Origin: Chiloscyllium plagiosum
Taxonomy: Eukaryota
Assembly: GCF_004010195.1 (NCBI RefSeq)
Contig: NC_057719.1
Location: forward strand, 11,826,774 to 11,846,773
Length of the DNA stretch: 20,000 nucleotides
Direction of reading: 5' to 3'
Shown here: piece after piece, positions 991-19,657 of the stretch
How the letters are laid out: the number at the start of each line of letters is the position of its first letter
Numbering within the stretch: position 1 is the first letter of the stretch
The notes under the pieces: model-generated
Told to the model about the DNA's origin: nothing
The model's database searches: none
Seen by the model: the letters and a program-made list of their open reading frames with translations, nothing else
Translations under genes and position numbers: made by a program

Positions 991-1519
991 CTTTTCTGCT
1001 CCCGGCTCTTTTGAATGAGCATTTATGAAGATAACCAATGGGCAGAACTGGTCTTAAACAGTCAACTTCACTGCATAGCCCAGTAACTAAACTTGCAAAC
1101 TCCCCCGCACATGAAGGAAAATCCACCGATGAATTAAGTTGAAATCATGGCTTTATTTAACAGGCCCTTATTCTCTGAAGTTTTGAAGATTGAGGGGTAA
1201 TCCCACTGAAAGATATTAAATTTCTGAGAGGGTTTGATGATACGATAAATGTTAAGAGATTGTTTCCTCTGGCTGGACAATTTAGTCCTTAAGGATATAC
1301 CTTGATCATTTAGGACTGAAATGAGGCTGTGAATCTTTGGAATTCTCTACCCCAGTGAGACACGGATTCTCCATCAAATGCAGAAGAAGCTAGAGAAGCT
1401 CAGCCAGTCTGGCAGCATCTGTGGAGGTAAAAACAATGACTGCAGACGCTGGAAACCAGATTCTGGATTAGTGGTGCTGGAAGAGCACAGCAGTTCAGGC
1501 AGCATCCAAGGAGCTTCGA

Positions 1520-1555
1520 AATCGACATTTCGGGCAAAAGCCCTTCATCAGGAAT
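1520..1555 (-). ncRNA. Minimal type-I hammerhead ribozyme motif (PLE-associated)
   Basis: Minus strand reads attc-CUGAUGA-a-GGGC uuuu GCCC-GAAA-u-GUC-gauu. The helix III palindrome ACGU is mutated to AUGU. Confidence 0.7.
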
Positions 1556-1885
1556 AAAGGCAGTGAGCCTGAAGCGTGGATAGATAAGCTAGAGGAGGGT
1601 GGGGGTGTGGAGAAAGTAGCGTAGAGTCCGTGTGGGATGAGTTGGTTACGGATGTGGCTGTGGTAGCGAGTTTGTTTCACGACATGGTTGAAGAGCTTCA
1701 GGGCAGAGGAAATGACCTGGGAGTTGCAGTGGGAGAGGGACTCCCTGAAATTCTTGTAGAGAGAGGAGGAAAACTTCTTCAAGGCAGGCATCCTTGCAAG
1801 AGGATTCGCAGTAGGGTTAAAATCAATGAGGTAAAAACAATGACTGCAGATGCTGGAAACCAGATTCTGAATTAGTGGTGCCTTT

Positions 1886-1921
1886 ATTCCTGATGAAGGG
1901 CTTTTGCCCGAAACGTCGATT
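1886..1921 (+). ncRNA. Minimal type-I hammerhead ribozyme motif, intact core
   Basis: Reads attc-CUGAUGA-a-GGGC uuuu GCCC-GAAA-c-GUC-gauu. Helix III is the palindrome ACGU. Predicted cleavage between 1917 and 1918. Confidence 0.8.
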
Positions 1922-2587
1922 TCGAAGCTCCTTGGATGCTGCCTGAACTGCTGTGCTCTTCCAGCACCACTAATCCAGCATCTGAGGAGAGATACGATAT
2001 GACTTTCCTTCAGGAATATTATTCATGGATTGTCCATCATTTGAATTTCTGCAAGTCAGGAGATTGACAGTTTTGTGCTGTTAAAGGGAGTCAGGAAGTG
2101 TCGAGTTAGGACGTGAAAATAACATTGAGGCAGAAGGTAGCCTTACTGAATATGGATCATGGACTGGATGACCTGATGCGGTTCCTATTTTATTCTCATG
2201 GCTAAGACCTCGTCTCAAGAGGCACACTCCGGCCTCGTGGGACAACAAGTATGCTGGGAGATCAAGCCACTCCCTGGAAAATTCCCATGAATTGATGTCA
2301 GTGCCCTGTATTTGGTCCATTCTTCAGGATTTGTCTCTGTAGTTGGTCGCTGTGAAGGAATGTTAATGCTATACTCATCTGCTGAGAATCGTACCACAGG
2401 AAACCGCAAAAAATATAAAAAGCAAGGAAAAGAAGACATACATTAGACTGAGACAGAGAGAGAACAAAAACATTTATTCTGTGGGTTGGGAAGTTTCCCT
2501 TCACTGAATTTATCTTGGCAATGCTGTCATTCTGACAGTTTACAAAGTCTGTGCCTTCTCTTTTGTCTCCAAAGATAGTCCTCAGTT

Positions 2588-2690
2588 TTCTGAAGAAGGA
2601 TCACTGGACCTAAAATATTAACTCTGACTTCTCTCCACAGATGTTGCCAGTCCTGAGTTTTTCCAGCAATTTTTGCTTTTGTTTCTGATT
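2588..2690 (+). mobile_element. Old PLE terminal-repeat fragment with a degenerate hammerhead
   Basis: CTGAAGA-A-GGATC ACTG GACCT-AAAA-TATT-AAC followed by TCTCTCCACAGATGTTGCCAG...GAGTTTTTCCAGCA. Same family as 1377-1426. The core is damaged (GAAA->AAAA). Confidence 0.6.
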
Positions 2691-2709
2691 ATATCTTTGC
2701 TGCTTTGGT

Positions 2710-2955
2710 TCCATTTCCCTTAATATCCTCGTTCAAGAAGAATCAACCAATATTAGTTATTCAATTAATCCATACTTCCTTGAGTTCTAAATTTACATTG
2801 TCCTTTGTGTTGAATGCATTCTGACATCCCCCACCCCCAAACAGCCTTGCTGGAATTCTAAAATTATGCCATTTCGTATTCTCATCTGCCCACCAGAACC
2901 AATCACTTACTTTTTCCTATCTATCCTATCAGATTATTTAAATCTCAAGCACTTT
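2710..2955 (-). mobile_element. Very old CR1-like 3' remnant
   Basis: Weak resemblance to reverse-complemented CR1 3' regions (CCATTTCCCTTAATATCC, TTCTAAATTTACA, CTATCTATCCTATCA). Confidence 0.3.
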
Positions 2956-3387
2956 GTGATGGAGGATCACAACATATTGTCATTTGGAAACCTGGGCTGT
3001 AATGTGGACAGAACATATAGGTTCTTAAAGTTTTATTTATATTTCTATGTTGGGTGTCAAAAATGGGAGACATTGTTTCAGTACAATTTTTTTGAGTCCT
3101 CCGAGAGTGTTGAGAGTTTTCTGACATGTTGTTTGCGTATATTTAAATGAGGTTTTTAAAATAAAAGCCCCTGAGATGAATAGTTCAGTGTTTCAGAAAA
3201 GTAGAGTAAATGTAAGTAAAAGAAAAGGCAGTTTCTTAAATACTAGCCAGATGTATGCAATCTTTCACCATATTTGAACCCTTTCATCTTCTGTTTGATG
3301 TCTATTTCCATGCTTTACAAGGCAATTTGAGGTATTTCTGCATTCAAAAACCTCTAAGTTCAGTGGTAGTACAGAATTTAAGTAGTT

Positions 3388-3553
3388 CTGAAAAGAGAGA
3401 CATGTTTCTGAAGCTTTTCATCTTGCACCCATCATAACAAAAACAAGAATGCCAAATTCCAACTAATCACAACAGCTTGTTTGAAATTTGGCATTCCTGC
3501 ATTTGTCCTAATGAGTGCATGACAAAAAGCTTTGACAAAATTTCTCTTTTCAG
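3388..3553. repeat. Imperfect palindrome (arms 3388-3462 and 3481-3553, 18-bp spacer); each arm is a decayed hammerhead-bearing repeat
   Basis: The reverse complement of the right arm (CTGAAAAGAGAAATTTTGTCAAAGCTTTTTGTCATGCACTCATTAGGACAAATGCAGGAATGCCAAATTTCAA) aligns along the whole left arm (CTGAAAAGAGAGACATGTTTCTGAAGCTTTTCATCTTGCACCCATCATAACAAAAACAAGAATGCCAAATTCCAA). Confidence 0.8.
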
Positions 3554-3679
3554 CAATTGTCTGTAAATTGTTTTTAAAGAAAATAGATACTTTTTTTGTA
3601 TTAAGGATCTACCTTTCTATTTTAAAGGCTGATAGATTTCAACTTAAATTTAACAATGTTTAGTTCAGGCTTTAAGATC

Positions 3680-4720
3680 ATAAGACATAAGAGACATAGG
3701 CCAATCAGCTCATCGAGAATACTCTACCGTTCAATGAGATACTGACTGATCAGATAATCTTTCACTTTCTTGCATTTTCCCCATAACTTTTGATTCCTTT
3801 ACTGAATAAAAATGTCTATCTCAGCCTTGAATATATTGGCCCAGCCTCAACATCCCTTCATGGTAAAGAATTCTTCAAATTCACAACCCTGAGAGAAGAA
3901 ATGCCTCCTCATCTCTGACCTAATTCCTTATGCTGAGATGATGCTCTCTGGTCCGAGACTGTCCCACAAGGGGAAACAAACTTTCTGTATCTATCCTTTC
4001 AAGTCCTCTTAGAATTCTGTATGTTTCAAAAAGGTCGCCTCTCATTCTTATACATTTCTAAAAGTACAGGTGTGAACTCCTCAACCTCTCCTCATCAGAC
4101 AGCCTCTCCATAGCTGGTATCAGTCGAGTGAACCTTCTGTGGGCTGCTTCCAATGCCAGTACATCTTTCATTAGTTAAAGAGCCCAAAACTGTTCACAGT
4201 ATTCCAGTTGTGGTCTGACTTGTATAGTGCCTTGTGTAGTTTTTGCTAGGCTTCCTTATTTTTAACTTCCATTCCCTTTGAAATAAAGGCCAATATTCCA
4301 TTTGCCTTCTTTATTACCTACTGAACTTGAATACTAGCTTTTTGTGATTTACGTACGAGGACTCCCACAGTCCTCTGTTCAGTAGCTTTCTCCATTTAAA
4401 TAAAATTCAGCTCCCCTGTTCTTATTGCCAAAGTGCATAAATTCACATTCGCCCAAATTATATTCCATCTGCCAAGTTTTCCACCACTTGCTGAATCTGT
4501 CCGTATTTCTCTTTGGACTCTTTGTGTCATCTTCACCACTTGCTTCCCCACCTATTTTGGTGTGTCATCCACAAACTTGGCTATAATATGTTCACATTCC
4601 TCATCCAAGTCATTAATATACATTGTAAATAATTATAGCCCCAGTATTGTTCCCTGTGGCACTCCGTTAGTTACAGATTACAATCCATAAAAAAAACCTC
4701 TTATCCCAACTTTTGTTTTT
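3680..4720 (-). mobile_element. CR1 LINE, 5'-truncated, diverged
   Basis: CATAAGA-type tail repeats at 3680-3699. The minus strand encodes RT motifs GVPQGTILGL and AKFVDDTP near 4550-4670 with frameshifts and stops. Confidence 0.85.
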
Positions 4721-5145
4721 TAATACCCTAAAACCCAACATTTGCAAATACATTCCAAATAGCACAAATAGCGCTCAAACTCCCAGTAACCTTGCATTTG
4801 TTTGAATCCACAAAATAACAAAGTTTAACAGCAGAATTGCGCAGAAGACATTGTTGTCATTATAAAATGGTTTCCAACTGGGGGCAATACCTCAGCCCCT
4901 TAGCATTTAATAAATACAGTCCTTCCATTCACTAGATACTAACGTATCTTGTGAGGTCCATGGGTTCATTATTTCATAGTGGGTCCCACAAATTGAAATT
5001 TGTTTGGCAGATTTAAAAGCCTTCATCGAGAAAGCAGATAGCATGCCTCTGTCATTCCAGATTAAAGTGATTTTTCTGGGATATCAGGTTGAAATGTGGA
5101 AAGATATAAAGCACATAACATTACCACAACATTATATGTCTGTTC

Positions 5146-6997
5146 ATAGAGTCATAGAGATGTACAGCATGGAAACAGACCCTTCAGCCCAACTCGTCCA
5201 CGCTGACCAGTTATCCCAACCCAATCTAGTCCCACCTGCCAGCACTCAGCCCATATCCCTCCAAAACCTTCCTATTCATCTACCCATCCAAATGCCTCTT
5301 AAATGTTGCAATTGTACCAGCCTTCACCATTTTCTCTGGCAGCTCATTCCATACACGTACCACCCTCTGTGTGAAAAAGTTGCCCCTTGGGTCTCTTTTA
5401 TATCTTCCCCCTCTCACTCTAAACCTATGACCTTTAGTTCTGGACTCTATGACCCCAGGGAAAAGACTTTGCCACTTACTCTATCCATGCCCCTCATTTC
5501 CCAAAATGCAGCACCTCACATTTATCTGAATTAAACTCCATCTGCCACTTCTCAGCCCATTGGCCCATCTGATCAAGATCCCATTGTAATCTGAGGTAAC
5601 CTTCTTCGCTGTCCACCACACCTTCATCTGCAAACTTTCTAACCATACCTCTTATGCTCACATTCAAATTATTTATATAAATGACAAAAAGTAGAGGACC
5701 CAGCACTGATCCTTGTGGCACTCCACTGGTCACAGGCTCCAGTCTGAAAAACAACCCTCCACCACCACCCTCTGCCTTTGAGCCAGTTCTGTATCCAAAT
5801 GGCTAGTTCTCCCTGTATTTCATGAGATCTAACCTTGCTAACCAGTCTCCCATGGGGAACCCTGTTGAACGCCTTACTGAAGTCCATTTGGATTACATCT
5901 ACCGGTCTGCCCTCATCAATTCTCTTTGTTACTTCTTCAAAAAACTCAATCAAGTTTGTGAGACATGATTTCCCAAGCATAAAGCCATGTTGACTATCCA
6001 TAATCAGTCCTTGCCTTTCCAAATACATGTACATCCTGTCCCTCAGGATTCACTCCAACAACTTGTCCACCACCGACGTCTGGCTCAGTGGTCTAATAAG
6101 GCTTGTCCTTACTATCCTTCTTAAAGTGTGGCACCACACCAACCTCTTGTCTTCCAGCATCACCTGTGACTATTGATGATACAAATATCTCAGCAAGAGG
6201 CCCAGCAATCACTTCTCTAGCTTTCCACAGAGTTCTAGGGTACACCTGATCAGGTCATGGGGAGTTATCCACCTTCATACGTTTCAAGAAATCAGCACTT
6301 CCTCCTCTGTAAATGGACATTTTTCAAGGTGTCGCTATCTTTCTCCGTACATTCTATATCTTCCATATCATTTTCCACAGTAAATACTGATGCCAAATAC
6401 TCATTTAGTATCTTCCCCATTTTCTGCAGCTCCACACAAAGGCCGCCTTGCTGATCTTTGAGGGGCTCTATTCTCTCCCTATTACCCTTTTGTCCTTAAT
6501 GTATTTGTAAAACCCTTTGGATTCTCCTTAATTCTATTTGCCAAAGCTGTCTCATGTCCCTTTTTTGCCCTCCTGATTTCCCTCTTAAGTGTACTCCTAT
6601 TGCCTTTATACTCTTCTAAGGAATCACTCAATCTATCCTGTCTATACCTGACATATGCTTCTTTCTTTTTCTTAACCAAACGCTCAATTTCTTTAGCCAT
6701 CCAGCATTCCCTATACCTACCAGCCTTCCCTTTCACCCTGACAGGAATACACTTTCTCTGGATTCTTGTTATCTAATTTCTGAAGGCTTCCCATTTTCCA
6801 GCTGTCCCTTTACTTACGAACATCTGCCCCCAAGCAGCTTTTGAAAGTTCTTTCCTAAACCCGTCAAAATTGGCCTTTCTCCAATTAGAACTTCAAATGT
6901 TACATTTGATCTGTCCTTTCCATCACAATTTTAAATCTAATAGAATTATGGCCGCTGGCTCCAAAGTGCTCCCCAACTTGACTCGGTCACCTGCCCT
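5146..6997 (-). mobile_element. CR1 LINE (young subfamily A), 5'-truncated, with an internal deletion of about 410 bp at 5497
   Basis: Tail CATAGAGTCATAGAG. RT fragments SQHGF...[35 protein letters not shown] and KFAD. Colinear with the copies at 8686-11870 and 12152-14008. Confidence 0.93.
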
Positions 6998-7319
6998 GTT
7001 CAATCCAACAGAATTAATTAACAGAACAGACACATAATAAATTGTACTCTATTTCAAAGGAAGAGTGTAATTTAGTTCAGGATAAGCACAGTCCACTACT
7101 GCTAGGTGAATAAGTCAGCTTTGCAAGGCCAGGCCCTGAACAGGCTCTTGGCTCTGGACAGAGATTGTTTCAAACAATAGCACAGCAATAGTTAACATCT
7201 TCTACAGATTGAGGGAGTCGAACATAAACCAACAAAGCATTTCTTTCACTCTACAAACATGCCTGAGGCAACTATTACTGTTACATCCTGTGACTGAATC
7301 TTGCTGCTTTGTTCCAAAG

Positions 7320-7562
7320 GTCAAAAGCCAATCAATGCCGAGGTCGACTCAGAGGCCCGAGGAAAACAACAAGCTGGAGAGTTGGAAGCAGAACAGCCAG
7401 CAACACCACAAGCAGCGGTGGTCACCTCAACAGACGCAGGGCACTCAGGCACAGCCAAACTTTGGGTCCAACTTGGAGGAAGTGGATCCTTTCGTCCTGG
7501 ACCTGAAGAATTTCCCTGACCTGACAAATGCAGATCTTAATGCTCAGAACCCAAATATTCAG
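7320..7562 (+). CDS. ISM2: Internal coding exon (243 bp, 81 codons, phase 0-0) of an isthmin gene, most likely isthmin-2 exon 2
   Basis: Acceptor TTGCTGCTTTGTTCCAAAG| ends at 7319 and donor CAG|GTGAGA starts at 7563. The open frame is VKSQSMPRS...HHKQRWS...LEEVDPFVLDLKNFPDLTNADLNAQNPNIQ. The C-terminal motif matches isthmin F(L/V)LDLxNFPDLxxADxNxQNPNIQ, which is followed by VTIEVVD in the next exon. From memory PFVLDLKNFPDL/NADL is closer to fish ISM2 than to ISM1, so the paralog call is less certain than the family call. Confidence 0.85.
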
Positions 7563-8377
7563 GTGAGAGAAACAATTAATGACTTGTAAACAATAGCGGA
7601 GCTTGGGGAAAAGAGAAGTCCCCTTCCTTTTACAATTTGAGAGCAACTAACATGCAACCTTCTTCATCCATTCAAATCTCTTGAGGGAATGATCTACACA
7701 ATCTCTTATTCCCATACATTATTGAATACATTTCTGGAAATTCAGCCAACCCAACCACATATTCATCCAACTACTTGAATCGGTACAACATCACCTGTTT
7801 TTGTTGGGCATCATCTTGTTCCATGTTTGTTCTACTTGTGACTAAAATGATTTCAAGACTCCCAGACCCATTGTTCAATGAAGATCAAATGATTTGATGT
7901 AATTCATTGCTGCAGCATTAACCTGCAGATGATTGAATACTGGAGTCTGCCTGATTCAATCTCTTTTGCATTGGACTGATACCAAATAATTTGATCAAAG
8001 GAGAATTTGTCCTACTTCTTTGCATGATCAATACTTCTATCGTCTTCTTCACCTTCCTTTTTTTTCCATCATCTTCTTTTCTCCAGCCTTGAAGATTTAA
8101 TCACCAGTCCAACTGGATTGTGTCAAGCACCACATGGCCAAATTGTCCTTTTCTAAAAACATCTACATTTTGAGTTCTTTCTCAGGAACAATGTCCAACT
8201 TCTTTTCTCTATCATTGTTTCATTAACACTCTCTCCTCTCACTTTCATCATCGAATGAAAAGAGTCTACAAATGACAATGCTAGAGAGACCATGTGTTCA
8301 ATTGACTCTGCTTCTCCCTCTTTTTCACCAGATTCTTGGGAAGGGTGCTGGTGTAGTAATAATGTCACTACAATAGT

Positions 8378-8463
8378 TAAATATCACACAACACCAGGTT
8401 ATAGTCCAACAGGTTTAATTGGAAGCACTAGCTTTCGGAGCGCTGCTCCTTCATCAGGTGGTC
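8378..8463 (-). mobile_element. 86-bp PLE terminal-repeat insertion (family B) inside the SINE head
   Basis: Perfect 14-bp TSD GTCACTACAATAGT at 8364-8377 and 8464-8477. The insert is the reverse complement of about 18722-18806. Confidence 0.85.
8426..8460 (-). ncRNA. Minimal type-I hammerhead ribozyme motif, fully intact
   Basis: Minus strand reads CAC-CUGAUGA-a-GGAGC agc GCUCC-GAAA-g-CUA-GUG. Helix I is CAC/GUG, helix II is 5 bp and helix III is the palindrome AGCU. Predicted cleavage between 8429 and 8428. Confidence 0.8.
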
Positions 8464-9192
8464 GTCACTACAATAGTAATCCAAAGCCAATGATCTCGGG
8501 ACATGGGTTTGAAATCCACTGTGGCAGATGGTGAAATTTGAATTCAATGACACAAGATCCAGAATTTTAAAAAGACCTGTAAGCACTATAAAAACCCTCT
8601 GGTTCACTAATGTTCATTAAGTCAGGAATCTGCCATCCTAACCTGGTCTGGCCTACAGCAAGTCCAGACCCTAAGACTATAAGACGATAGGAACATGGGA
8701 CTGGGATATCATAGCAATTACAGAAATGTGGCTCAGGGATGGGCAGGACTGGCAGCTTAATTTTCCAGGATACAAATGCTACAGGAAGGATAGAAAGAGA
8801 GGCAAGAGAGGAGGGTAATGGCACTTTTGATAAGGGATAGCGTTACAGCTGTGCTGAGAGAGGATATGGAAATAAATCCAGGGAAGTTATTTGGGTGGAA
8901 CCGAGAAATTGGAAAGGGATGATCACCTTATTGGGATTGCATTATAGACTCCCTAATGGTCAGAGGGAAATTGAGAAACAACCTTGTAAGGAGATCTCAG
9001 CTATCTGTAAGAATAATAGGGTGGTTATGGTAGGGGATTTTAACTTTCCAAACATAGACTGGGACTGCCACAGTGTTAAGGGTTTAGATGGAAAGGAATT
9101 TGTTAAGTGTGTACATGAAAATTTTTCTGTTTCAGTATGTGGATGTACCCACTACAGAAGGTGCAAAACTTGATCTACTCTTGGGAAATAAG

Positions 9193-9283
9193 ATTCTGGA
9201 TCAGTGGTGCTGGAAGAGCACAGCAATTCAGGCAGCATCCGAGGACAGGCAAAATCGACGTTTCGGGCAAAAGCCCTTCATCA
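9193..9283 (-). mobile_element. 91-bp PLE terminal-repeat insertion with a hammerhead core (9253-9284)
   Basis: Perfect 10-bp TSD GGGAAATAAG at 9183-9192 and 9284-9293. Minus strand reads CUGAUGA-a-GGGC uuuu GCCC-GAAAC-GUC. Same family as 1427-1975. Confidence 0.88.
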
Positions 9284-9575
9284 GGGAAATAAGGCAGGGC
9301 AAGTGACTGAGGTGTCAGTGGGGGAGCACTTTGGGGCCAGCAACCATAATTCTATTATATTTAAAATAGTGATGGAAAAGGATAGACCAGATCTAAAAGC
9401 TGAAGTTCTAAATTGGAGAAAGGCCAATTTTGACAGTATTAGGCAAGAACTTTCGAAAGCTGATTGGAGGCAGATGTTTGCAAGTAAAGGGACGGCAGGA
9501 AAATGGGAAGCCTTCAGAAATGGGATAATGAGAATTCAAAGAAAGTATATTCCTGTTAGGGTGAAAGGAAAGGCT

Positions 9576-9754
9576 TGATTCTGGATTAGTGGTGCTGTAA
9601 AAGCACAGCAGTTATACACAGCAGCATCCTGATGAAGGGCTTTTGCCCGAAATGTCGATTTTACTGCTCCTCGGGTGCTGTCTGAACTGCTGTGCTTTTA
9701 CAGCACCACTAATCCAGAATCTGGTTTCCAGCATCTGCAGTCATTGTTTTTATC
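9576..9754 (+). mobile_element. 179-bp PLE terminal-repeat insertion with a 5' inversion and a hammerhead motif (9626-9659)
   Basis: Perfect 14-bp TSD TGAAAGGAAAGGCT at 9562-9575 and 9755-9768. Perfect 37-bp inverted repeat at 9577-9613 / 9685-9721. Motif AUC-CUGAUGA-a-GGGC uuuu GCCC-GAAAU-GUC-GAU. Confidence 0.9.
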
Positions 9755-10026
9755 TGAAAGGAAAGGCTGGTAGGTATAGGGAATGCTGGATGACTAAAGA
9801 AATTGAGGATTTGGTTAAGAAAAAGAAAAAAAAAGCATATGTAAGGTATAGACAGGATAGATCGAGTGAATCCTTAGATTATAAAGGAAGTAGGAGTATA
9901 CTTAAGAGGGAAATCAGGAGGGCACAAAGGGGACATGAGATAGATTTGGAAAATAGAATTAAGGAGAATCCAAAGAGTTTTTACAAATACATTCAGGACA
10001 AAAGGGTAACTAGGGAGAGAATAGGG

Positions 10027-10148
10027 GAGAAAGTGAGGTCTGCAGATGCTGGAGATCAAAGTTGAAACTTTATTGCTGGAACAGCACAGCAGGTCAGGCA
10101 GCATCCAGGGAACAGGAGATTCGACGTTTCGGGCACAGGCCCTTCTTC
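10027..10148 (-). mobile_element. 122-bp PLE terminal-repeat insertion (related subfamily) with a hammerhead core (10119-10150)
   Basis: Perfect 11-bp TSD AGAGAATAGGG at 10016-10026 and 10149-10159. Minus strand reads CUGAAGA-a-GGGC cugu GCCC-GAAAC-GUC-gaau. Confidence 0.88.
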
Positions 10149-11870
10149 AGAGAATAGGGCCCTTCCAAGATCAACAAGGCAGCTTTTGTGTGGAGCCGCA
10201 GAAAATGAGAGAGATACTAAATGAGTATTTGGCATCAGTATTTACTATGGAAAAGGTATATGGATAGACTGTAGGGAAATAGATGGTGACATCTTGCAAA
10301 ATGTCCATATTGCAGAAGAGGAAGTGCTGGATGTCTTGAAAAGCATAAAGATGGATAAATCCCCATGACCTGATCAGGTGTACCCTAGAACTCTGTGGGA
10401 AGCTAGAGAGGTGATTGCTGGGCCTCTTGCTGAGATAGACTGGAGGTTGGCTAACGTGGTGCCACTGTTTAAGAAAAGTGGTAAGGACAAGCCAGGGAAC
10501 TATAGACCAGTGAGCCTGACTTCTATGGTGGGCAAGTTGTTGGAGGGAATCCTGAGGGACAGGATGTACATGTATTTGGAAAGGGAAGGACTGATTAGGG
10601 ATGAGTGCATGGGAAATCATGTCTCACAAACTTGATTGAGTTTTTTGAAGAAGTAACAAAGAGGATTGATGAGGGCAGAGCGGTAGATGTGATCTATATG
10701 GACTTCAGGAAGGCATTCAACAAGGTTCCCCATGGGAGACTGATTAGCAAGGTTAGATCTCGCGGAATACAGGGAGAACTAGCCATTTGGATATAGAACT
10801 TGCTCAAAGGTAAAAGACAGAGGGTGGTGCTGGAGGGTTGTTTTTCAGACTGGAGCCTGTGACCAGTGGAGTGCCACAAGGATTGGTGCTGGTTCCTCTA
10901 CTTTACATAAATGATATGGATGTGAGCATAAGAGGTACAGTTAGTAAGTTTGCAGATGACACCAAAATTGGAGGTGTAGTGGACAGCGAAGAGGGTTACC
11001 TCAGAGTACAACCGGATCTTGATCAGATGGGTCAATGGGCTGAGAAGTGGCAGATGGAGTTTAATTCAGATAAATGTGAGGTGCTGCATTTTGGGAAAGC
11101 AAATCTTAGCAGGATTTACACACTTAATGGTAAGGTCTGAGGGAGTGTTGCTGAAAAAAAGAGACCTTGGAGTGCAGGTTCATAGCTCTTTGAAAGTGGA
11201 GTCGCAGGTAGATAGGATAGTGAAGAAGGCGTTTGGTATGCTTCTTTTATTGGTTAGAGTATTGAGTACAGGAGTTGGGAGGTCATGTTGCTGTACAGGA
11301 CATTGGTTAGGCCACTGTTGGAATATTGCATGCACTTTTGGTCTCCTTCCTATTGGAAAGATGTTGTGAAACTTGAAAGGGTTCAGAAAAGATTTACAAG
11401 GAAGATGCCAGGGTTGGAGGATTTGAGCTATAGGGAGAGGCTAAACAGGCTGGGGCTGTTTTCCCTGGAGGGTCAGAGGCTGAGGGGTGACCTTATAGAG
11501 GTTTAAAAAATTATGAGGGGCATGGATAGGGTAAATAGACAAAGTCTTTTTCCTGGGGTCGGGGAGTCCAGAACTAAGAGGGCATATAGGTTTAGGGTGG
11601 GAGAGGGAAGATATAAAAGAGACCTAAGAGGCAACCTTTTCACACAGCGGCTGGTACGTGTATGGAATGAGCTGCCAGAGGGAGTGGTGAAAACTGGTAC
11701 AATTGCAACATTTAAGAGGCGTTTGGATGGGTATATGAATAGGAAGGGTTTGGAGGGATATGGGTCGGGTGCTGGCAGGTGGGACTAGATTGGGTTGGGA
11801 CATCTGGTCGGCATGGACGAGTTGGACCAAAGGTCTGTTTCCGTGCTATACGTCTCTATGACTTTGACTG

Positions 11871-14800
11871 TAAGACCATAAGATACTGGAGCAGAAATTA
11901 TGTCATTCAGCCCATCAAGTCTCTATCAATCTCTGTCTTAAATATACTCGAAGACCTGGCCTCCACAGCTTCAGTGGTAGTGAATTCCACAGATTCACCA
12001 ATCTCTGGTTGAAGAAGTTTCTTCTTATCTCCGTTCTAAAAGATCTTCCCTTCACTCTAAGGCTGTGCTCTCGGGTCCCAGTCTCTCCTACCAATGGAAA
12101 CGTCTTTCCAGCATCCACTCTGTCCAGGCCATTCAGTATTCTGTAAGATTTAGTTCGGAAACAGACCCAATTGCCCAACTCGTCCATGCTGACCAGATAT
12201 CCCAACCCAATCTTGTCTCACTTGCCACTTCCCAGCCCATATCCCTCCAAACCCTTCATAATCATATATCCATCCAGATGCCATTTAAATGTTGCAATTG
12301 TACTAGCCTCCACAACTTCCACTGGCAACTCATTCCACAAACGCACCACCCTCTGCGTGAAAATGTTGCCCCGTAGGTCTCTTTTATATCTTTCCCCTCT
12401 CACCCTAAACCTATCCCCTCTTGTTCTAGATTCCCCCAACCCAGGAAAAGACCTTGTCTATTTACCCTATCAATGCCCCTCATGATTTTATAAATCTCTA
12501 TAAAGTCACCCCTCAGCTCCAGGGAAAACAGCCCCAGCCTATTCAACCTCTCCCTATAGCTCAAATTCTCCAACCCTGGCAACATCCTTGTAAATCTTTT
12601 CTGAACCCTTTCAAGTTTCGCAACATCTTTCCGATAGGAAGGAAACCAGAATTGCACGCAATATTCCAACAGTGGCCTAACCAATGTCCTGTACAGCCAC
12701 AACATGACCTCCCAATTCCTGTATTCAATACTCTGACCAATAAAGGAAAGCATACCAAATGTCATCTTCATTATCCTATCTACCTGCGACTCCACTTTAA
12801 TGGAGCTATCAATCTGCACTCCAAGGTCTCTTTGTTCAGCAGCACTCTCTAGGACCTTACCATCAAGTGAATACGTCCGGCTAAGATTTGCTTTCCCAAA
12901 ATGCAGCAGCTCGCATTTATCTGAATTAAATTCCATCTGCCACTTCACAGCACAATGGCTCATCTGATTAAGAGACTGTTTTAATCCAAGGTAACCTTCT
13001 TCGCTGTCCACTACACCTCCAATTGTAGTGTCATCTGAAACTTACTAACTATACCTCTTAAGCTCACATCAAATCATTTATATAAATGACGAAAAGTAGT
13101 GGACCCAGCACTGATCCTTGTGGCACTCCACTGGTCACAGGCCCCCAATCTGAAAAACAATCGTCCACCACCACCTGGCTCAAAGGTCTTCTACCTTTGA
13201 GCCAGTTCTGTTTCCAAGTGGCTAGTTCTTCCTGTATTCCATGAGATCTAACCTTGTTAATCAGTCTCCCATGGGGAACCTTGTCGAATGCCTTACTGAA
13301 GTCCATATAGATCACATCTACCGCTCTGCCCGCATCAATCATCTTTGTTACTTCTTCAAAAAACTCAATCAAGTTTGTGAGACATGGTTTCTCATGCGCA
13401 GAACCATGTTGACTATCCCTAATCAGTCCTTGCCTTTCCAAATACATGTACATTCTGTCCCTCAGGATTCCATTTCACAACTTTCCCACCACTGACGTCA
13501 GGCTCACTAGTCTATAGTTCCCTGGCTTGTCCTTACCACCTTTCTTAAATAGTGGCACTATGTTAGCCAACCTCCATTCTTCTGGCACCTCACCTGTGAC
13601 TATCAATGATACAAATATCTCAGCAATCACTTCACTAGCTTCCCACAGAGGTCTAGGGTACACCTGATCAAGTCCTGGGGATTTATCCACTTTTATGCAT
13701 TTAAAGATATCCAGAACTTCCTCTTCTGTAATTTGGACATTTTTCAAGGTGTCACCATCTATTTCACGACAGTTTATATTTTCCATGTCCTCCTTCACAG
13801 TAAATACTGATGCAAAATACTCGTTTAGTATCTCCCCATCTCCTGTGGCTTCACATAAAGGCTGCCTTGCTGATCTTTGAGGGGCCCTATTCTCTCTCTA
13901 GTTACCCTTTTATCCTTAATGTATTTGTAAAAACCCTTTGGATTCTCCTTAACTATATTTGCCAAAGTTATCTCATGTCCCCTTTTTGCCCTTCTGATTT
14001 CCCTCTTAATGATTCTGGATCTCCCTCCCATACTTCTAAACTCCCAAGTATAGACCCAGAGTCCTCAAATGTTTCTCATATGCTAAGCTTTTCATTCCTG
14101 GGGCCATTCTTGTGAATCTCCTCTGAACATGCTCCAGGGCCAGCACATCCTTCCTGAGATACGGAGCCCAAAATTGTATACAATATTTCAAATGTGGTCT
14201 GACCAGAGCTTTATAGAGCCTTAGAAGTATATCCCTGCTTTTATATTCAAGTCTTCTCAAAATAAATGCCAACATTGCATTTGCCTTCCTAACTACTGAC
14301 TCAACCTGTAAGTTTACCTTGAGAGAATCCTGGACTAGAACTCCCAAGTCTCTTTCTATTTCAGACTCCTGAATTTTCTCCCCATTTAGAAAATTGCCCA
14401 TGTCTCTATTCTTCTTACCAAAGTGCATGACCTCACATTTTCCCACGTTGTACTCCATCTGCCACTTCTTTGCCCACTCTCCTAACCAGTCCAAATCCTT
14501 CTGCAGCCTCCCCATCTCCTCAATGCTACCTGTCCCTTTACATATCTTTGTATCATCTGCAAATTTAGCCAGGATGCCCTCGGTTCCTTCATCTAGACCA
14601 TTAATGTGTAAAGTGGTTCTAACACTGGGCCTTGCAGAAACCACTTGTCACCAGCTTCCCTCCTGAGAAAGACCCTTTTATCCCCACTCTCTGGTTTCTG
14701 CCAGACAGTCCAGCTTCTATCCTTGCTACCACCTTGCCTCTAACACTATTGGCACTTTTCTTACTCAGCAGCCTCCTGTGCGGCACCTTGTCAAAGGCTT

Positions 14801-15124
14801 TCTTGAAGTCCAGGTAGATAACATCCATTGGCTCTCCTTGGTCTAACCAGCTCATTAATTCCTCAAAAAAAGTCTAGCAGATTTTTTAGGCATGTCCACC
14901 CCTTGATGAAACCACAATGCTGACTTTGCCCTATTTTACCATGCACTTCCGAGTATTCAGAAATCTCATCCTACAGAATGGTCTACAAAATTGTAGCCAT
15001 GATAGAGGTTAGGCTAATCGGCCTGTAATTTTCCATCTTTTGCCTTACTCCCTTTTTAAACTGGAGTATCCATGTTCACCAATTTCCAGTCCTCTGGGAC
15101 CCTCCCTGACTCTAGCTATTCCTG
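11871..15124 (-). mobile_element. CR1 LINE (subfamily B), 5'-truncated, in two parts (11871-12151 and about 14009-15124)
   Basis: TAAGACCATAAGA tail. The 3' part encodes ILNGLDRVDAGKTFPLVG...NLWNSLP. The upstream part encodes [21 protein letters not shown] and LYKALVRPHLKYC. The two parts are contiguous in ORF2 order across the nested copy. Confidence 0.9.
12152..14008 (-). mobile_element. CR1 LINE (subfamily A) nested in the subfamily B copy
   Basis: RT motifs [21 protein letters not shown] and [21 protein letters not shown]. It is a reverse-complement match to about 9902-11843. It lacks the terminal CATAGAG tail and has no clear TSD. Confidence 0.93.
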
Positions 15125-15227
15125 AGACCCATTGCAAAGTGGTTGACTCCTACCCCCACCTCGCTCCAGGTAAATAAATGTTGGGCCAGCTAACAAAGTG
15201 CACATCTCATGAACGAATAAATAAAAA
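15125..15227 (+). mobile_element. 3' part of the SINE that starts at 8343
   Basis: AGACCCATTGCAAAGTGGTTGACTC resumes where 8671 stops (compare minus-strand CCAGACCAGAGCAATGTGGATAACTC in the 394-705 copy). AGACCC is duplicated at 8666-8671 and 15125-15130. Ends in CATGAACGAATAAATAAAAA. Confidence 0.7.
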
Positions 15228-15332
15228 GTCACCTCTCTAATCCCAGCTGTTTTCTCTCTTTCCAGTTTCATCTTCCATCTCTTTCCCAAACAGTTCTGAG
15301 TTCATCTTGTTCATCAGTCCCACTGCCTATGA

Positions 15333-15421
15333 TTGCTCCTGGGATGCTGCCTGACCTGTTGTGCTTTTCCAGCACCACACACTCAACTCTGATCTCCAGC
15401 ATCTGCAGTCTTCACGTTCTC
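15333..15421 (+). mobile_element. 89-bp PLE terminal-repeat insertion lacking the hammerhead
   Basis: Perfect 15-bp TSD TCCCACTGCCTATGA at 15318-15332 and 15422-15436. GGATGCTGCCTGACCTG...GATCTCCAGCATCTGCAG is homologous to the reverse complement of 10027-10113. Confidence 0.85.
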
Positions 15422-15453
15422 TCCCACTGCCTATGACCTCAATCCCATTAAAC

Positions 15454-15661
15454 TGTTGTGACCCAACCTCTCTTCATGGCCCTGCTTGTAAACATACTCT
15501 AATCAGGGAGCCCTGGCTGACAGATATAAACAGGAGTGTCAGAGGTTCTGTTCACTCTGAGAGCTGGCTCTGAGGAAACTGGACCAGTGTCAAGTACTAT
15601 GAGTGTCTAAATCAAGGGTGACTTGGTGACGGGATATTGGCTTTTGTGGGGTTTTTTTCCA
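15454..15661 (+). mobile_element. Probable solo LTR (Gypsy-like)
   Basis: TG...CA ends, a TATA-like GATATAAA near 15523 and a degenerate polyA-like AAATCAA near 15608. It resembles a shark LTR repeat recalled from memory. No TSD found and the boundaries are approximate. Confidence 0.4.
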
Positions 15662-16007
15662 CTCTGTTTGTTCTCCCTTCCAAAATGAACATCATTCGAT
15701 GGTAGTTGCTCCATTTCATAGGGGATGCCAGCCCCTTGCAAGCAGTGGTTACCTGTGTACCCACTCTCAGTGTGACCCCGACCTCGTATAGAGGCTTTCG
15801 TGGGGTCAAGTTCAGCACAGTCCAACTCAATCTCTTCTAAAATCTCAGCCTGGGTGGGTGATGGGGGAATCATCTTAAACCAATCCTTTGGATTGGTTTT
15901 CCTGCAGGATTGGGTGGAATTTTGTTTTGTCACCTCTGTCTAATGTTACCCGTAGCCCACTTTCGAGGGGAGGGGGAGTGGGTCTGCGCCTTCTGGGTGC
16001 AGGCGGC

Positions 16008-16077
16008 TGTGCATGTCACTGTCTCTGGACTAGTAATTCAAAGGTCCAGCCTGCAGACATGTGTTCAGACCCCATCC
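16008..16077 (+). mobile_element. SINE head fragment
   Basis: TGTCTCTGGACTAGTAATTCAAAGG...GACATGTGTTCAGACCCCA resembles the heads of the SINEs at 394-705 and 8343. Confidence 0.4.
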
Positions 16078-16084
16078 TGAGTTC

Positions 16085-16415
16085 AATCGAATGCAGCGAA
16101 GGTTGACCAGACTGCCTCTAGGGATGGTGGCTCAGTTGGATGAGAAGACGTTGGATCAACTGGGCCTATATTCAGTATTAGGAAAATTGGGAGGGGCTCT
16201 AATTAAAACAGAACCTTCACACAGGGCTGGACAGACCGAACACACGGATAATGTATCCCCCTCCTCCCTGCCTGGCAGGCGAGGGTGGGGTCAGCTGTGT
16301 GGCCAGAACAAGTGGTCACAGACTCTGGATGTACAACTGGATGCCATTTTCAGACTGAGCTGAAGGCTGATTTCTTCTCACAGAATGTGTTTAACTCTGT
16401 ATCACAGAAGGAGGT
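16085..16415 (+). mobile_element. Old CR1 3' ORF2 fragment
   Basis: Translates MQRRLTRLPLGMVAQLDEKTLDQLGLYS...LGGALIK, a decayed version of VQRRFTRM.PG...RL..LGL.S...LRGDLI. Also TTTCTTCTCACAGAATG. Confidence 0.55.
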
Positions 16416-16419
16416 GAAC

Positions 16420-17716
16420 ATGTTTATTGGCCACTTTTGGAAGTACTGTGTAAGGTTCTGGTTGCTATGCTATAGAAAGGAAATTATTAATTTGGAGATG
16501 GTTTGGAAAAGATTTACAATATTACTGAGATTGGAAGGTTTTAGTTATGCTTGGGGAGGCTAGATAGTCTGAGACTTTTTCACTAGAGTGTAGGAGGTTG
16601 AGGGGTTACCTTATAGAGTTTTATAAAATCATGAGGGCATAGATAAGGTGAATAGCCAAGGTCTTTTCCATTAGTTGGGGGAGTTCAAAACCAGGGGGCA
16701 TATCTTTAAGGTGAGGGGAAAAGATTTAAAAGGACCTGAGGGGCAACATTTTCAAACAGACAGTGGTTTGTATGTGGAATGAATTGCCAGAGGAAGTGAA
16801 GATGCAAGTACAGTTAAAACATAAAAGACATATAAATGGGAAAGGCTGAGAGTCATAGAGATGTACAGCATGGAAACAGATCCTTCGGTCCAACCTGTCC
16901 ATGCCGACCAGATATCCCAACCCAATCTAGTCCTACCTGCCAGCCCATATCCCTCCAAACCCTTCCTATTCATATACCCATCCAAATGCCTCTTAAATGT
17001 TGCAATTGTACCAACCTCCACCACTTCCTCTGGCAGCTCATTCCATACACGTACCGCCCTCTGCATGTAAAAGTTGCCCCTTAGGACTCTTTTATATCTT
17101 TCCCCTCTCAGCCTAAACCTATGACCTCTAGTTCTGGACCAGGGAACACCAGGGAAAAGACTTTGTATATTTATCCTATCCTATCCATCAGCCTTATAAT
17201 TTTGTAAACCTCTATAAGGTCACCCCTCAGCCTCCAATGCTTCAGGGAAAACAGCCCCAGCCTGTTCAGCCTCTCGCTATAGCTCAAATCCCCCAACCCT
17301 GGCAACATCCTTGTAAATCTTTTCTCAACCCTTTCAAGTTTCACAACATCTTTCCAATAGGAAGGAGACCAGAATTGCACGCAATATTCCAACAGTGGCC
17401 AAACCAATGTCCTGTACAGCTGCAACACGACCTCTCAACTCCTGTACTCAATACTCTGACCAATAAAGGAAAGCATACCAAATGCCGCCTTCACTATCCT
17501 ATCTACCTGCGACTCCACTTTCAAGGAGCTATGAACTGCACTCCAAGGTCTCTTTGTTCAGCTACACTCCCTCGGACCTTACCATTAAGTGTATAAGTCC
17601 TGTTAAGATTTAGGCCAAATGCAGGCAAATGGTACTAGTTTAGTTTGGGAAACATGGTCGGCATGGATAGGTAGGATTGAAGGGTTGTCTCCATGTCGTA
17701 TGATTCTATCACTGTA
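16420..17716 (+). mobile_element. CR1 3' fragment in two parts (16420-16846 and 17611-17716)
   Basis: Contains KYCVRFW...YRKEII.LEMVWKRFT, TTGAGGGGTTACCTTATAGAG and GTGGAATGAATTGCCAGAGGAAG. The 3'UTR resumes at GGCCAAATGCAGGCAAATGG and ends TATGATTCTAT. Confidence 0.8.
16847..17610 (-). mobile_element. CR1 LINE (subfamily A), 5'-truncated, nested antisense in the older CR1
   Basis: Tail GAGTCATAGAGATGTACAGCATGGAAACAG and peptide LYRTLVWPLLEYCVQFWSPSY...LRGDLIEVYKI. Colinear with 12157-12889. Confidence 0.92.
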
Positions 17717-17727
17717 AGCAATTGCCT

Positions 17728-17900
17728 TTCCTCGATTACTGCTCCACTCTTTCTAAATCACTGTCATCATCTCAATATTGGCTAGAAACAATCTGTACCC
17801 TCTCTCCTTGCCACTCCATCTGCAACCTCCTATACTTCACCACAATCCACAAATGTGCCGTTCCTCCCAAAATCCTTGTCTGTATTTCTTACGACTCTGT
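17728..17900 (+). mobile_element. Possible ancient L2 LINE remnant
   Basis: Translation LDYCSTL...KILVCISY loosely resembles the L2 ORF2 C-terminal motifs LDYCNSLL...FKIL. Confidence 0.3.
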
Positions 17901-18066
17901 ATTTGAATCCTTCTCCTGTAGCAGAAGAACAGCTCTAACCAAGGTCACAATCAGTATTCACTATAACTGATGGTAGTACATTCTTTCTTCTCTACTGGAT
18001 TGCAAGGTTGATCATACCATCCTCACTCAATGCCTCTTTTTTGACCCAGCTTAATGGAATTACTCC

Positions 18067-19657
18067 TTTGATTTATTTTTGTTGTCACATGTATCCTGAT
18101 ACAGTGAAAAAGTGTTGTTTTGTGTGCTATATGGGCAGAGTGTGCTATATAAAGTGCATCAGGAAAGCAAAACAGAGTGCAGACTACAGTGTTACAGCCA
18201 CAGAGAAGGTGCAGAGAGAGAAAGAGATCAGCATTAACATTTGACAAGTCCGTTCAAAAGTCTGACAACAGTGGGGAAGAAGCTGTTTGTACGTGTATTC
18301 AAACTTTTATATCTTCTGCTCAACAGAAGAGGGTGGAAGAGAGTGCAACCTGGGTAGGAGGGATCTTTTATTGTGTTGTTTGCTTTCCCAAGGAGCGGGA
18401 AGTGTAAATTGAGTCAGTGGATGGAAGGCTGGTTTGTGTGATGGACTAGGCTGTATTCACGACTCTTTAGCTTCTTGTGGTCATGGGCAGAGCAGTTGCT
18501 GCACCACACTGTGATGCATCCTATTGTTAAAGTTCTTTTGAGAACATAACTTTAAAAAAAGTTCTGAGATTTACATATGAAAGAACTGAAACCAACAAGG
18601 TCATTCTAACAGATGACAGACATATCAAACAATCCAAGTCTTTTTCAATATGTCATTTCATTGGCATCACACTGTAAACTGTTGCTATAAATTCTGTGTC
18701 TTATGATCTTATATTCCACAACCACTTGATGAAGGAGCAGTGCTCCAAAAGCTAGTGCTTCCAAATAAACTTGTTGGACTATAACCTGGTGATGTGAGAT
18801 TTTTAACTTCGTACACCACAGTCCATCACCAGCATCCAAATCATGCACTCTGATGGAATGCTTTCTATGATGCATCTGTAAATATTTGTAAGAGTCTTTG
18901 TGGACATGCTAACTTTCCTTAGTGTCCTGAGGAAGTAGAGACATTGTTGTACTTTCTAGACCGTTGTGTTGACTTGAGTGGACCAGGACGAATTGTTGGT
19001 AATTATCACTCCTAGAAACTTGACGCTCTCGACGATCTCCACCTCAGCAACATTGATGCAGTCAGGCGTGTGTCCTCCACTCAGCCTCCTGAAGTCAATG
19101 ACCAGCTCCTTCATTTTGCTGACGTTGATGGAGAGATTGTTGTCTTTGCATCTTGCTGCTAAGCACTGAATCTCTTTCCTGTATTCTGACTCGTTGTTAT
19201 TTGAGATTGACCTACAATGGTAGTGTCGTCGGCAAACTTGTAAATGGAGTTGGGTCAGCTTTTGGCCACACAGTTGTGAGTATGCAAGGAGTATAGTAGG
19301 GGACTGAATATGCAGCCTTGTGGGGCACCAGTGTTGGGGATTATCTTGGCACAGCTGTTGTCGCCTATTCTTACCGACTGTGGTCTGTGGGTCAGGAAAT
19401 TGAGGACCAGGTTACAGAGAGGGGAGTTGAGACCTAGGTCTGGGAGTTTAGAGGTGAGCTTATTTGGAACTATAGCGTTGAAGGCTGAGCTTTGGACAAG
19501 TAGCAGAAGCCTGACAATAGGTATCCTTGTTATCCAGATATTTCTGGGATGAATGTAGGGCCAGAGAGATGGTGTTTAGTGTCGACCTCTTGTGCCTGTA
19601 CGCAAATTGCAAAGGATCAAGGCAGTTTGGTCGGATGGAGTTGATGTGAGCCATGAA
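18067..19657 (-). mobile_element. Rex1/Babar-clade LINE, 5'-truncated RT pseudogene, interrupted at about 18525-18845
   Basis: The minus strand encodes LDPLQFAYRHKRST, GAPQGCIFSPLLYSL and IYKFADDTTIVG, which are Rex1-type motifs. The 3' end is TTTCACTGTATC...CATGTGACAACAAAAATAAATC. Confidence 0.85.
18525..18845 (+). mobile_element. PLE family B terminal repeat (about 320 bp) with an inactivated hammerhead at 18723-18757
   Basis: Contains the reverse complement of 8378-8463. The core is mutated to UUGAUGA...AAAA. It interrupts the Rex1 sequence at GTGATGCATCC / GATGGAATGCTTTC. Confidence 0.8.

Follow-up and report, generated by a model that had tools for sequence, protein, structure and literature searches.

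Minimal hammerhead motifs at the isthmin-2 locus of a bamboo shark are very probably relics of Penelope-like elements

Why should a single shark gene harbour a crowd of hammerhead ribozyme motifs, and do they belong to the gene or to something that landed in it? The question is raised by a stretch of 20,000 nucleotides from Chiloscyllium plagiosum (contig NC_057719.1, positions 11,826,774 to 11,846,773; hereafter the window), in which an original prediction, made from the letters alone, had placed ten hammerheads from at least four repeat families inside one gene's introns. Our analysis makes it very probable that what was seen are minimal type-I hammerheads from the terminal repeats of Penelope-like elements (PLEs), brought in by about eight short insertions that now ride, likely as inert passengers, in the introns of isthmin-2.

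The window was scanned with a descriptor consisting of CUGANGA, an optional extra nucleotide, a helix II of at least 3 bp, GAAA, a palindromic helix III and H17. Six matches were obtained, where 300 dinucleotide shuffles gave 0.08 on average and never more than 2, and a stricter pattern gave three matches against none in 200 shuffles; a chance origin of the motifs is ruled out by both comparisons. The six matches are the same copies that had been named as intact (1520, 1886, 8426, 9253, 9626 and 10119), recovered at the predicted places and on the predicted strands, with C3 at 1551-, 1890+, 8457-, 9284-, 9629+ and 10150-. The four copies described as decayed (2590, 3405, 3503 and 18723) are present as well, and their core changes are G12>A at 2590+, C3>A and A9>G at 3435-, G5>A and G12>A at 3508+, and C3>U and G12>A at 18726+. 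The conserved core CUGANGA...GAAA...UH is thus unchanged in six of the ten copies and carries one or two changes in the other four. All ten motifs exist, but they correspond to about eight insertions, because 1520 and 1886 share one insert bounded by a target-site duplication (TSD) and 3405 and 3503 look like one inverted pair.

The helices around these cores largely follow the prediction. An extra A follows A9 in eight of ten copies and is lacking in family E (the families are defined below), the G10.1-C11.1 pair is found in eight copies and is replaced by G-U in two decayed ones, and helix II stays paired through its sequence changes in 38 of 39 cells when the copies are anchored on the core, pairs 10.2, 10.3 and 10.4 differing on both strands of the helix from one family to another (a simple pair count over five families). 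Helix III is a palindrome that reads ACGU, AGCU, AAGCUU or AUAU across the copies, and the two eroded to AUGU are indeed 1520 and 9626. The word intact holds for the core and fails for helix I, where only one to three contiguous pairs lie beside it: three in 8426 and 9626, two in 1520 and 1886 (followed there by a mismatch and then one more pair), and one in 9253 and in 10119, the last being a wobble. In 9253 and 10119 the 5' arm of helix I is host DNA, and the decayed 3503 copy has 6 bp. For the published class the helix I criterion is 3-5 bp, as against the 3 bp of 8426 and 9626 and the 1 bp of 9253 and 10119. The Rfam search that had been proposed found no hammerhead family at E<=10, either over the whole window or over 1400-2050, and its weak miRNA matches mirror inverted repeats only.

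Five sequence types can be told apart where at least four had been expected: A (1520, 1886, 9253 and 9626), B (10119), C (8426 and 18723), D (2590) and E (3405 and 3503), with a related 3' part common to A, B and D. TSDs of 10-15 nt bound six inserts, including a stub without a core that the original prediction had not listed (15333-15421); no convincing TSD was found for the 18723 copy of family C or for the D and E inserts. The distance from C17 to the 3' end is 58/64 or 97/98 nt in family A, 96 nt in family B, and 49 or 89 nt in family C. The two classes of 3' end in families A and C are therefore 34-40 nt apart, which is the size of the PLE tail, given as 30-40 bp (PMC8557442, PMC11167929). 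Adjacent inverted copies, seen as arms in 1427-1975 and 9576-9754, complete the anatomy.

Family A is taken to be a PLE, on the evidence of this anatomy and of the start of an open reading frame (ORF), of which the N-terminal part is present. Its insertion at 1427-1975 consists, in order, of a tail piece, the ORF start, a deletion junction, a minus-strand 3' pseudo-long terminal repeat (pLTR) with its hammerhead, and an adjacent inverted short pLTR copy (~1879-1975, plus strand), the two arms being 98% complementary. The ORF start resembles a Chiloscyllium protein, P0013 (Table 1), and the first 164 residues of P0013 have 68 relatives, among them P0039 (E 2e-7), a protein of 882 residues with a C-terminal GIY-YIG domain whose close relatives contain RVT_1. 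Compared pairwise, P0013 matches the N-terminus of P0039, a full-length protein with reverse transcriptase (RT) and GIY-YIG, at E 1e-13. With a profile of 75 full-length PLE ORFs, E values of 1e-23 to 1e-36 were reached by the shark proteins, the alignments beginning at the first profile positions (P0013 is reported at E 9e-29); the same profile matches the ORF piece in the window weakly (iE 0.001) and nothing else there. Among 75 distant full-length relatives of the family-A ORF, 74 carry a CX2-5CxxC linker, a trait assigned to Neptune and Nematis (PMC8557442), so that family A may more likely be Neptune-like. For families B, C, D and E, which have no ORF here, we infer the same PLE origin, from anatomy or motif; for E, origin is a matter of such inference throughout. 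The prediction of several PLE or retrozyme-like lineages is thus borne out as to minimal type-I hammerheads of PLEs, for A through ORF start and anatomy and by extension for B to E, and the retrozyme label drops away for this window, as it holds no tandem array.

Pfam gave nothing above its cut-off for the ORF start, P0013 or P0014, and among 17 longer homologues it recognized a PLE domain in P0039 only. The N-terminal region of these PLE ORFs escapes Pfam, and the shark and ray gene models P0013, P0014, P0015, P0016 and P0020, named "uncharacterized" or "mucin-2-like", are N-terminal pieces of such ORFs.

Table 1. Positions of the insertions, their hammerheads and the host exon in the window
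Feature	Position	Strand	Basis or detail
Family-A PLE insertion	1427..1975	-	14-nt TSD with one mismatch, 1413-1426 and 1976-1989
Family A minimal hammerhead, intact core, helix III AUGU	1520..1555	-	Descriptor scan
PLE ORF 5' start, about 60 codons, internally deleted	1612..1791	-	Chiloscyllium protein P0013, 81% identity over 67 aligned positions
Family A minimal hammerhead, intact core, helix III ACGU	1886..1921	+	Predicted pairing with 1524-1551 in pre-mRNA
Family D stub, decayed hammerhead	2590..2690	+	G12>A; CpG changes in helices II and III
Family E inverted pair, two decayed hammerheads	3385..3560	.	Motifs 3405-3440 (minus) and 3503-3538 (plus)
isthmin-2 internal coding exon (host gene)	7320..7563 (about)	+	97% identity to Chiloscyllium punctatum isthmin-2-like; AG/GT ends
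Family C stub, intact hammerhead 8426-8460	8380..8463	-	14-nt exact TSD, 8364 and 8464
Family A stub from C3 of intact core 9253-9284	9193..9284	-	10-nt TSD at 9183 and 9284
Family A stub, inverted 5' arm 9576-9613, intact core 9626-9659	9576..9754	+	14-nt exact TSD, 9562 and 9755
Family B stub from C3 of intact core 10119-10150	10027..10150	-	11-nt TSD at 10016 and 10149
Family B-like stub, without core, truncated 3' of hammerhead	15333..15421	+	15-nt TSD at 15318 and 15422
Longer family C copy, decayed hammerhead 18723-18757, long 3' end	18600..18843 (5' limit approximate)	+	Motif and 3' end

Some details of single inserts go beyond the table. The 8426-8460 hammerhead has a helix II of 5 bp, AGCU in helix III and a helix I of 3 bp; the family B stub has lost the 5' arm of helix I; and the 9576-9754 stub is predicted to pair with 9257-9284 in the pre-mRNA. 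In the family E pair helix II is 2 bp long, the extra A is absent and helix I reaches up to 6 bp; in each of the two copies, loop II could form six pairs with the sequence that precedes helix I on its 5' side. Insertion of PLEs into other PLE copies is a known habit, and insert 1427-1975 sits in a decayed pLTR copy of D-like type that predates it (minus strand, 1380-1426 and 1976-2020), in which a possible eleventh hammerhead remnant lies near 2013.

PLE hammerheads are a described kind of element, and their occurrence in the bamboo shark extends a known feature. The consensus for the minimal hammerheads of metazoan PLEs, CUGANGAH-G..C-GAAAN-palindrome-NUH (Cervera and De la Pena 2014, PMC4209133), is matched here in the CUGANGAH box, the extra nucleotide before helix II, the G10.1-C11.1 pair, the palindromic 15.2-16.2 (ACGU, AGCU) and the short helix I, as well as in the presence of several covarying families per genome, mostly as solo copies, with opposite-strand pairs 100-700 bp apart. 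Helix II differs in being shorter, at 4-5 bp (2 bp in family E). The Anolis carolinensis Poseidon element PAc (Frangieh et al. 2024, PMC11167929) likewise carries its hammerhead close to where pLTR and ORF meet, has a tail delimited by two 3' ends, and inserts from a template of uncleaved RNA; in contrast to PAc, family A has its ORF ATG about 70 nt past the tail rather than at helix II, and its full-length relatives carry the Neptune/Nematis linker. Non-LTR (animal) retrozymes are also non-coding, with a type-I hammerhead and a pLTR origin, and have been reported from one chondrichthyan (10.64898/2026.07.22.740005), but they are tandem units each with a hammerhead, whereas the copies in the window are solo or inverted and TSD-bounded; the window has no tandem array, and a few head-to-tail joints occur in contigs from elsewhere in the genome. 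Family E, with two decayed copies here, resembles those hammerheads whose stem II is 2 bp long and which form a stem I-II pseudoknot (Perreault et al. 2011, PMC3088659), a study in which repetitive type-I motifs were omitted from part of the pseudoknot analysis. One of the two supplement files of PMC4209133 names no shark, and a literature search that did not extend to most subscription papers, Repbase or Dfam found no paper describing shark PLE hammerhead families.

Are the copies near isthmin-2 still working? Folding of 1400-2030 and 9150-9790 places the two intact sense cores in long duplexes with their antisense neighbours (mean probability 0.96 and 0.999), with a helix II probability of 0.0 for both, so that both are predicted by these models to be sequestered in pre-mRNA duplexes. 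Monomer folds were no more stable than those of shuffled sequences (z -1.8 to +1.0), and a hammerhead dimer did not appear in the homodimer minimum-free-energy folds. A hairpin between the core and the 7 nt upstream of C3 was considered and dropped, as it appeared in one fold, was missing from another, and was found in 18 of 96 metagenome motifs. RNA starts or ends did not pile up in the one sequencing run inspected (2,102 reads in both directions, 97% of them only partly on the stretch), which is a weak test given its fragmented poly(A) single-cell library; a second RNA run gave no matching reads. In vitro, motifs of this kind have shown no cleavage as monomers and low cleavage as natural dimers (PMC4209133), one of nine dimers was active in another study (10.64898/2026.07.22.740005), and the Anolis Poseidon motif cleaved only with protein added and was rescued by the C3G/G8C exchange (PMC11167929). 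The copies at isthmin-2 are likely inert leftovers and not a device of the gene.

The original prediction also held that self-cleavage was kept under selection. This is sustained between families, where the core is fixed while helix II varies on both sides, a pattern that fits selection on active elements, and sequence comparison suggests that selection likely kept the hammerhead in the active parents; it does not apply to the copies in the window, which are decaying. After insertion, single copies likely decay neutrally and mostly at CpG. By their appearance, the G12>A changes of three copies and the step from ACGU to AUGU are transitions at CpG; the CpG at 1527 accounts for the sole difference in 88 nt compared between the arms of insert 1427-1975, and the palindromic base at 1527 is retained in about 70% of contig depth.

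Abundance was gauged from contigs matched to 1000-1878 at no less than 82% likeness. Run X1 contributed 41,420 such contigs and run X9, from a second organism and with 64% of the run read, 27,905. Summed contig depth is ~4e6 over the core against 11.4 on unique flank, from which we bracket the A/B-like core copies at 1.1e4-3.5e5, allowing for up to 31-fold overcounting and bearing in mind that contig depth is not true copy number. This rough estimate seems to lie above the 4,000-9,000 copies of coelacanth and Xenopus (PMC4209133). The isthmin-2 setting is likely incidental, because the A/B family is very abundant. For dispersed hammerhead motifs in shark introns, the default reading should be repeat debris, and tens of thousands of dated copies could serve to chart the start and stop points of PLE reverse transcription and to test whether the hammerhead is ever cut in the transposition cycle.

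Beyond the shark, a metagenome search gave 119 pattern matches at 118 loci, of which 77 of the 119 have a helix II of at least 4 bp and an ACGU or AGCU palindrome, two of the pairs having been fixed by the search pattern itself. No shark copies and no flank homology were found at the 118 loci, and BLAST to the window matched the core only, in four of them. Viral contigs gave no match to the A/B pattern or to the E-type pattern. The same minimal pattern occurs in an estimated ~4,100 metagenome stretches.

Several points weigh against a PLE origin with inert copies. No PLE RT or endonuclease sequence was found in the window, where tblastn with 121 PLE proteins matched only the family-A ORF start, and it is thus anatomy and motif that tie families B to E to PLEs. 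The four family-A copies show 0 differences in 112 for the 28-nt core against 11 in 228 downstream (p=0.019) when four tied columns, one of them a CpG, are omitted and although two of the copies are not independent; the core count becomes 2/112 once the tied CpG column is included, so the signal of core conservation within family A is weak, and divergence between subfamilies may account for much of the difference downstream. The copy bracket from contig depths falls below the ~1e6 copies implied by five A/B cores per 20 kb in a genome that we take to be about 4 Gb, and the window may for this reason exceed the average density. Lastly, the folds are equilibrium models, in which neither splicing nor folding during transcription is considered.

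By analogy with Anolis Poseidon, we suppose that the PLE protein would nick the target and that reverse transcription would begin on uncleaved element RNA, at either of two sites that lie 49-98 nt downstream of the hammerhead cut site. It would usually halt a few bases upstream of the core, leaving stubs of 85-125 nt that keep the core yet often lose helix I. In the parent element the motif would cleave only as a dimer, through its palindromic helix III and probably with help from protein, and inserted copies would decay neutrally, mainly at CpG. The 5' ends are as follows: in three inserts the element extends 0, 1 and 2 nt upstream of C3, in two more it extends 5-6 and 11 nt, two further copies extend well upstream of the core, and one is cut downstream of it. 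Two of the five A/B target sites, 9284-9303 and 15313-15332, are similar to the 16 nt that lie upstream in the element itself (background fractions 0.003 and 0.008), while the remaining three do not stand out (0.3-0.97), giving a combined p of 0.007 in a post hoc test. Such element-like targets possibly reflect an endonuclease preference or a junction set by homology. The target of stub 15333-15421 has 8 straight bases in common with the family-A upstream sequence.

The clustering of 5' ends before the core can be read in other ways. It may mark a transcript start, and the Penelope pLTR does have an internal promoter with an initiator (PMC2377424), or it may mark a sister subfamily that diverges there, or target homology. 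On the first of these, the units of 85-135 nt would be not truncations but a self-propagating non-autonomous family, SINE-like (like short interspersed nuclear elements) or retrozyme-like, which starts before helix I and uses PLE proteins in trans. The five inserts with ends near C3 speak for this, as does position 1555, 4 nt upstream of C3, which ranks with the best-supported loose-end places in all three runs that gave reads (581, 517 and 194 records, from the best six places per run), with long, unlike flanks in both contig sets; no loose-end place falls just after C17 among the matches listed. Contig depth drops ~4.5-fold by 1570-1599 and 25-fold by 1600-1629, contig joints from 1555 to 1829/1830 set the tail end on the hammerhead head in a head-to-tail unit of ~130 nt (7 and 12 contigs), and animal retrozymes have been argued to stem from PLE pLTRs (10.64898/2026.07.22.740005). 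We nevertheless consider such a family unlikely: the window has no tandem array, truncation predicts both the ORF sequence in one A insert and the cut 3' of the core in one B stub, the loose ends at 1555 may partly mark sister-subfamily divergence (their consensus opens with the same four letters in three runs) and come from the best six places per run, and homology could set the 5' junction at the two element-like targets, a post hoc observation. Equally doubtful is a fuller version, in which shark PLE-derived, hammerhead-headed mini-retroposons of 85-135 nt, in 10^4-10^5 or more copies, have RNA starting just before helix I and move with proteins supplied in trans, some of them into targets resembling what lies upstream in the element, and in which family E has exchanged the long helix II for a 2-bp stem plus a pseudoknot of loop II with the 5' flank and could cleave faster than other PLE hammerheads. 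Opposite-strand contig joints from 1512/1514 to 1555/1553 were also seen, in two organisms and from elsewhere in the genome; the head-to-tail and the inverted joints at 1555 are natural dimer candidates.

Two further accounts concern what the motifs do. One is that isthmin-2 has co-opted one or more copies to cut its own pre-mRNA, for instance through a dimer of 1886 and 9626, the two sense copies with full cores, which lie one on each side of the exon; conserved intronic hammerheads are known in amniotes (PMC6155905, PMC3088659). We think this highly improbable. The sense strand of isthmin-2 holds only these two of the six intact copies, the other four being antisense, each is predicted to be tied up by a near-perfect antisense neighbour at a distance of 300-350 nt, their helix I has just 2-3 bp, the family is very abundant, and natural dimers cleave poorly in the in vitro studies cited above. 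The other account is that the hammerhead shape is retained for protein binding, as a promoter or as a translation signal, and never cuts. Mutants of the Anolis Poseidon hammerhead left insertion in vitro unaffected, and RNA-seq reads did not start or end at its cut site (PMC11167929); the inserted copies here continue intact through the cut site, and the third pair of family A's helix I is a U-U mismatch. Yet every catalytic position is kept across families A, B and C, and the protein-aided cleavage and rescue of the Anolis motif point the same way, so that a purely non-cleaving role has, in our estimate, a low probability. We retain the view that these are very probably PLE hammerheads, which likely became inert passengers once inserted.

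The host gene is identified by a single internal exon (Table 1), which in addition has 63-86% identity to 11 further matches, ten of them named shark or ray isthmin-2 proteins. A second isthmin-2 exon was not found within the 20-kb window, the rest of which is likely intron, consistent with the placement of the motifs in one gene's introns. Whale-shark introns have been described as expanded by CR1-like LINEs (long interspersed nuclear elements) as well as by PLEs (10.1101/443036). Much of the window is filled with LINE debris bearing endonuclease and RT motifs of CR1 type. One LINE copy, which we take to be CR1-like, contains three of the stubs, 9193-9284 among them, and the three are younger than it because they are nested inside it. 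Several long LINE fragments, mutually 85-95% alike, lie in both orientations (~8700-11870 on the plus strand; 5140-6990, 12150-14020 and 16850-17620 on the minus strand), and the opposed fragments would make long double-stranded RNA in isthmin-2 pre-mRNA.

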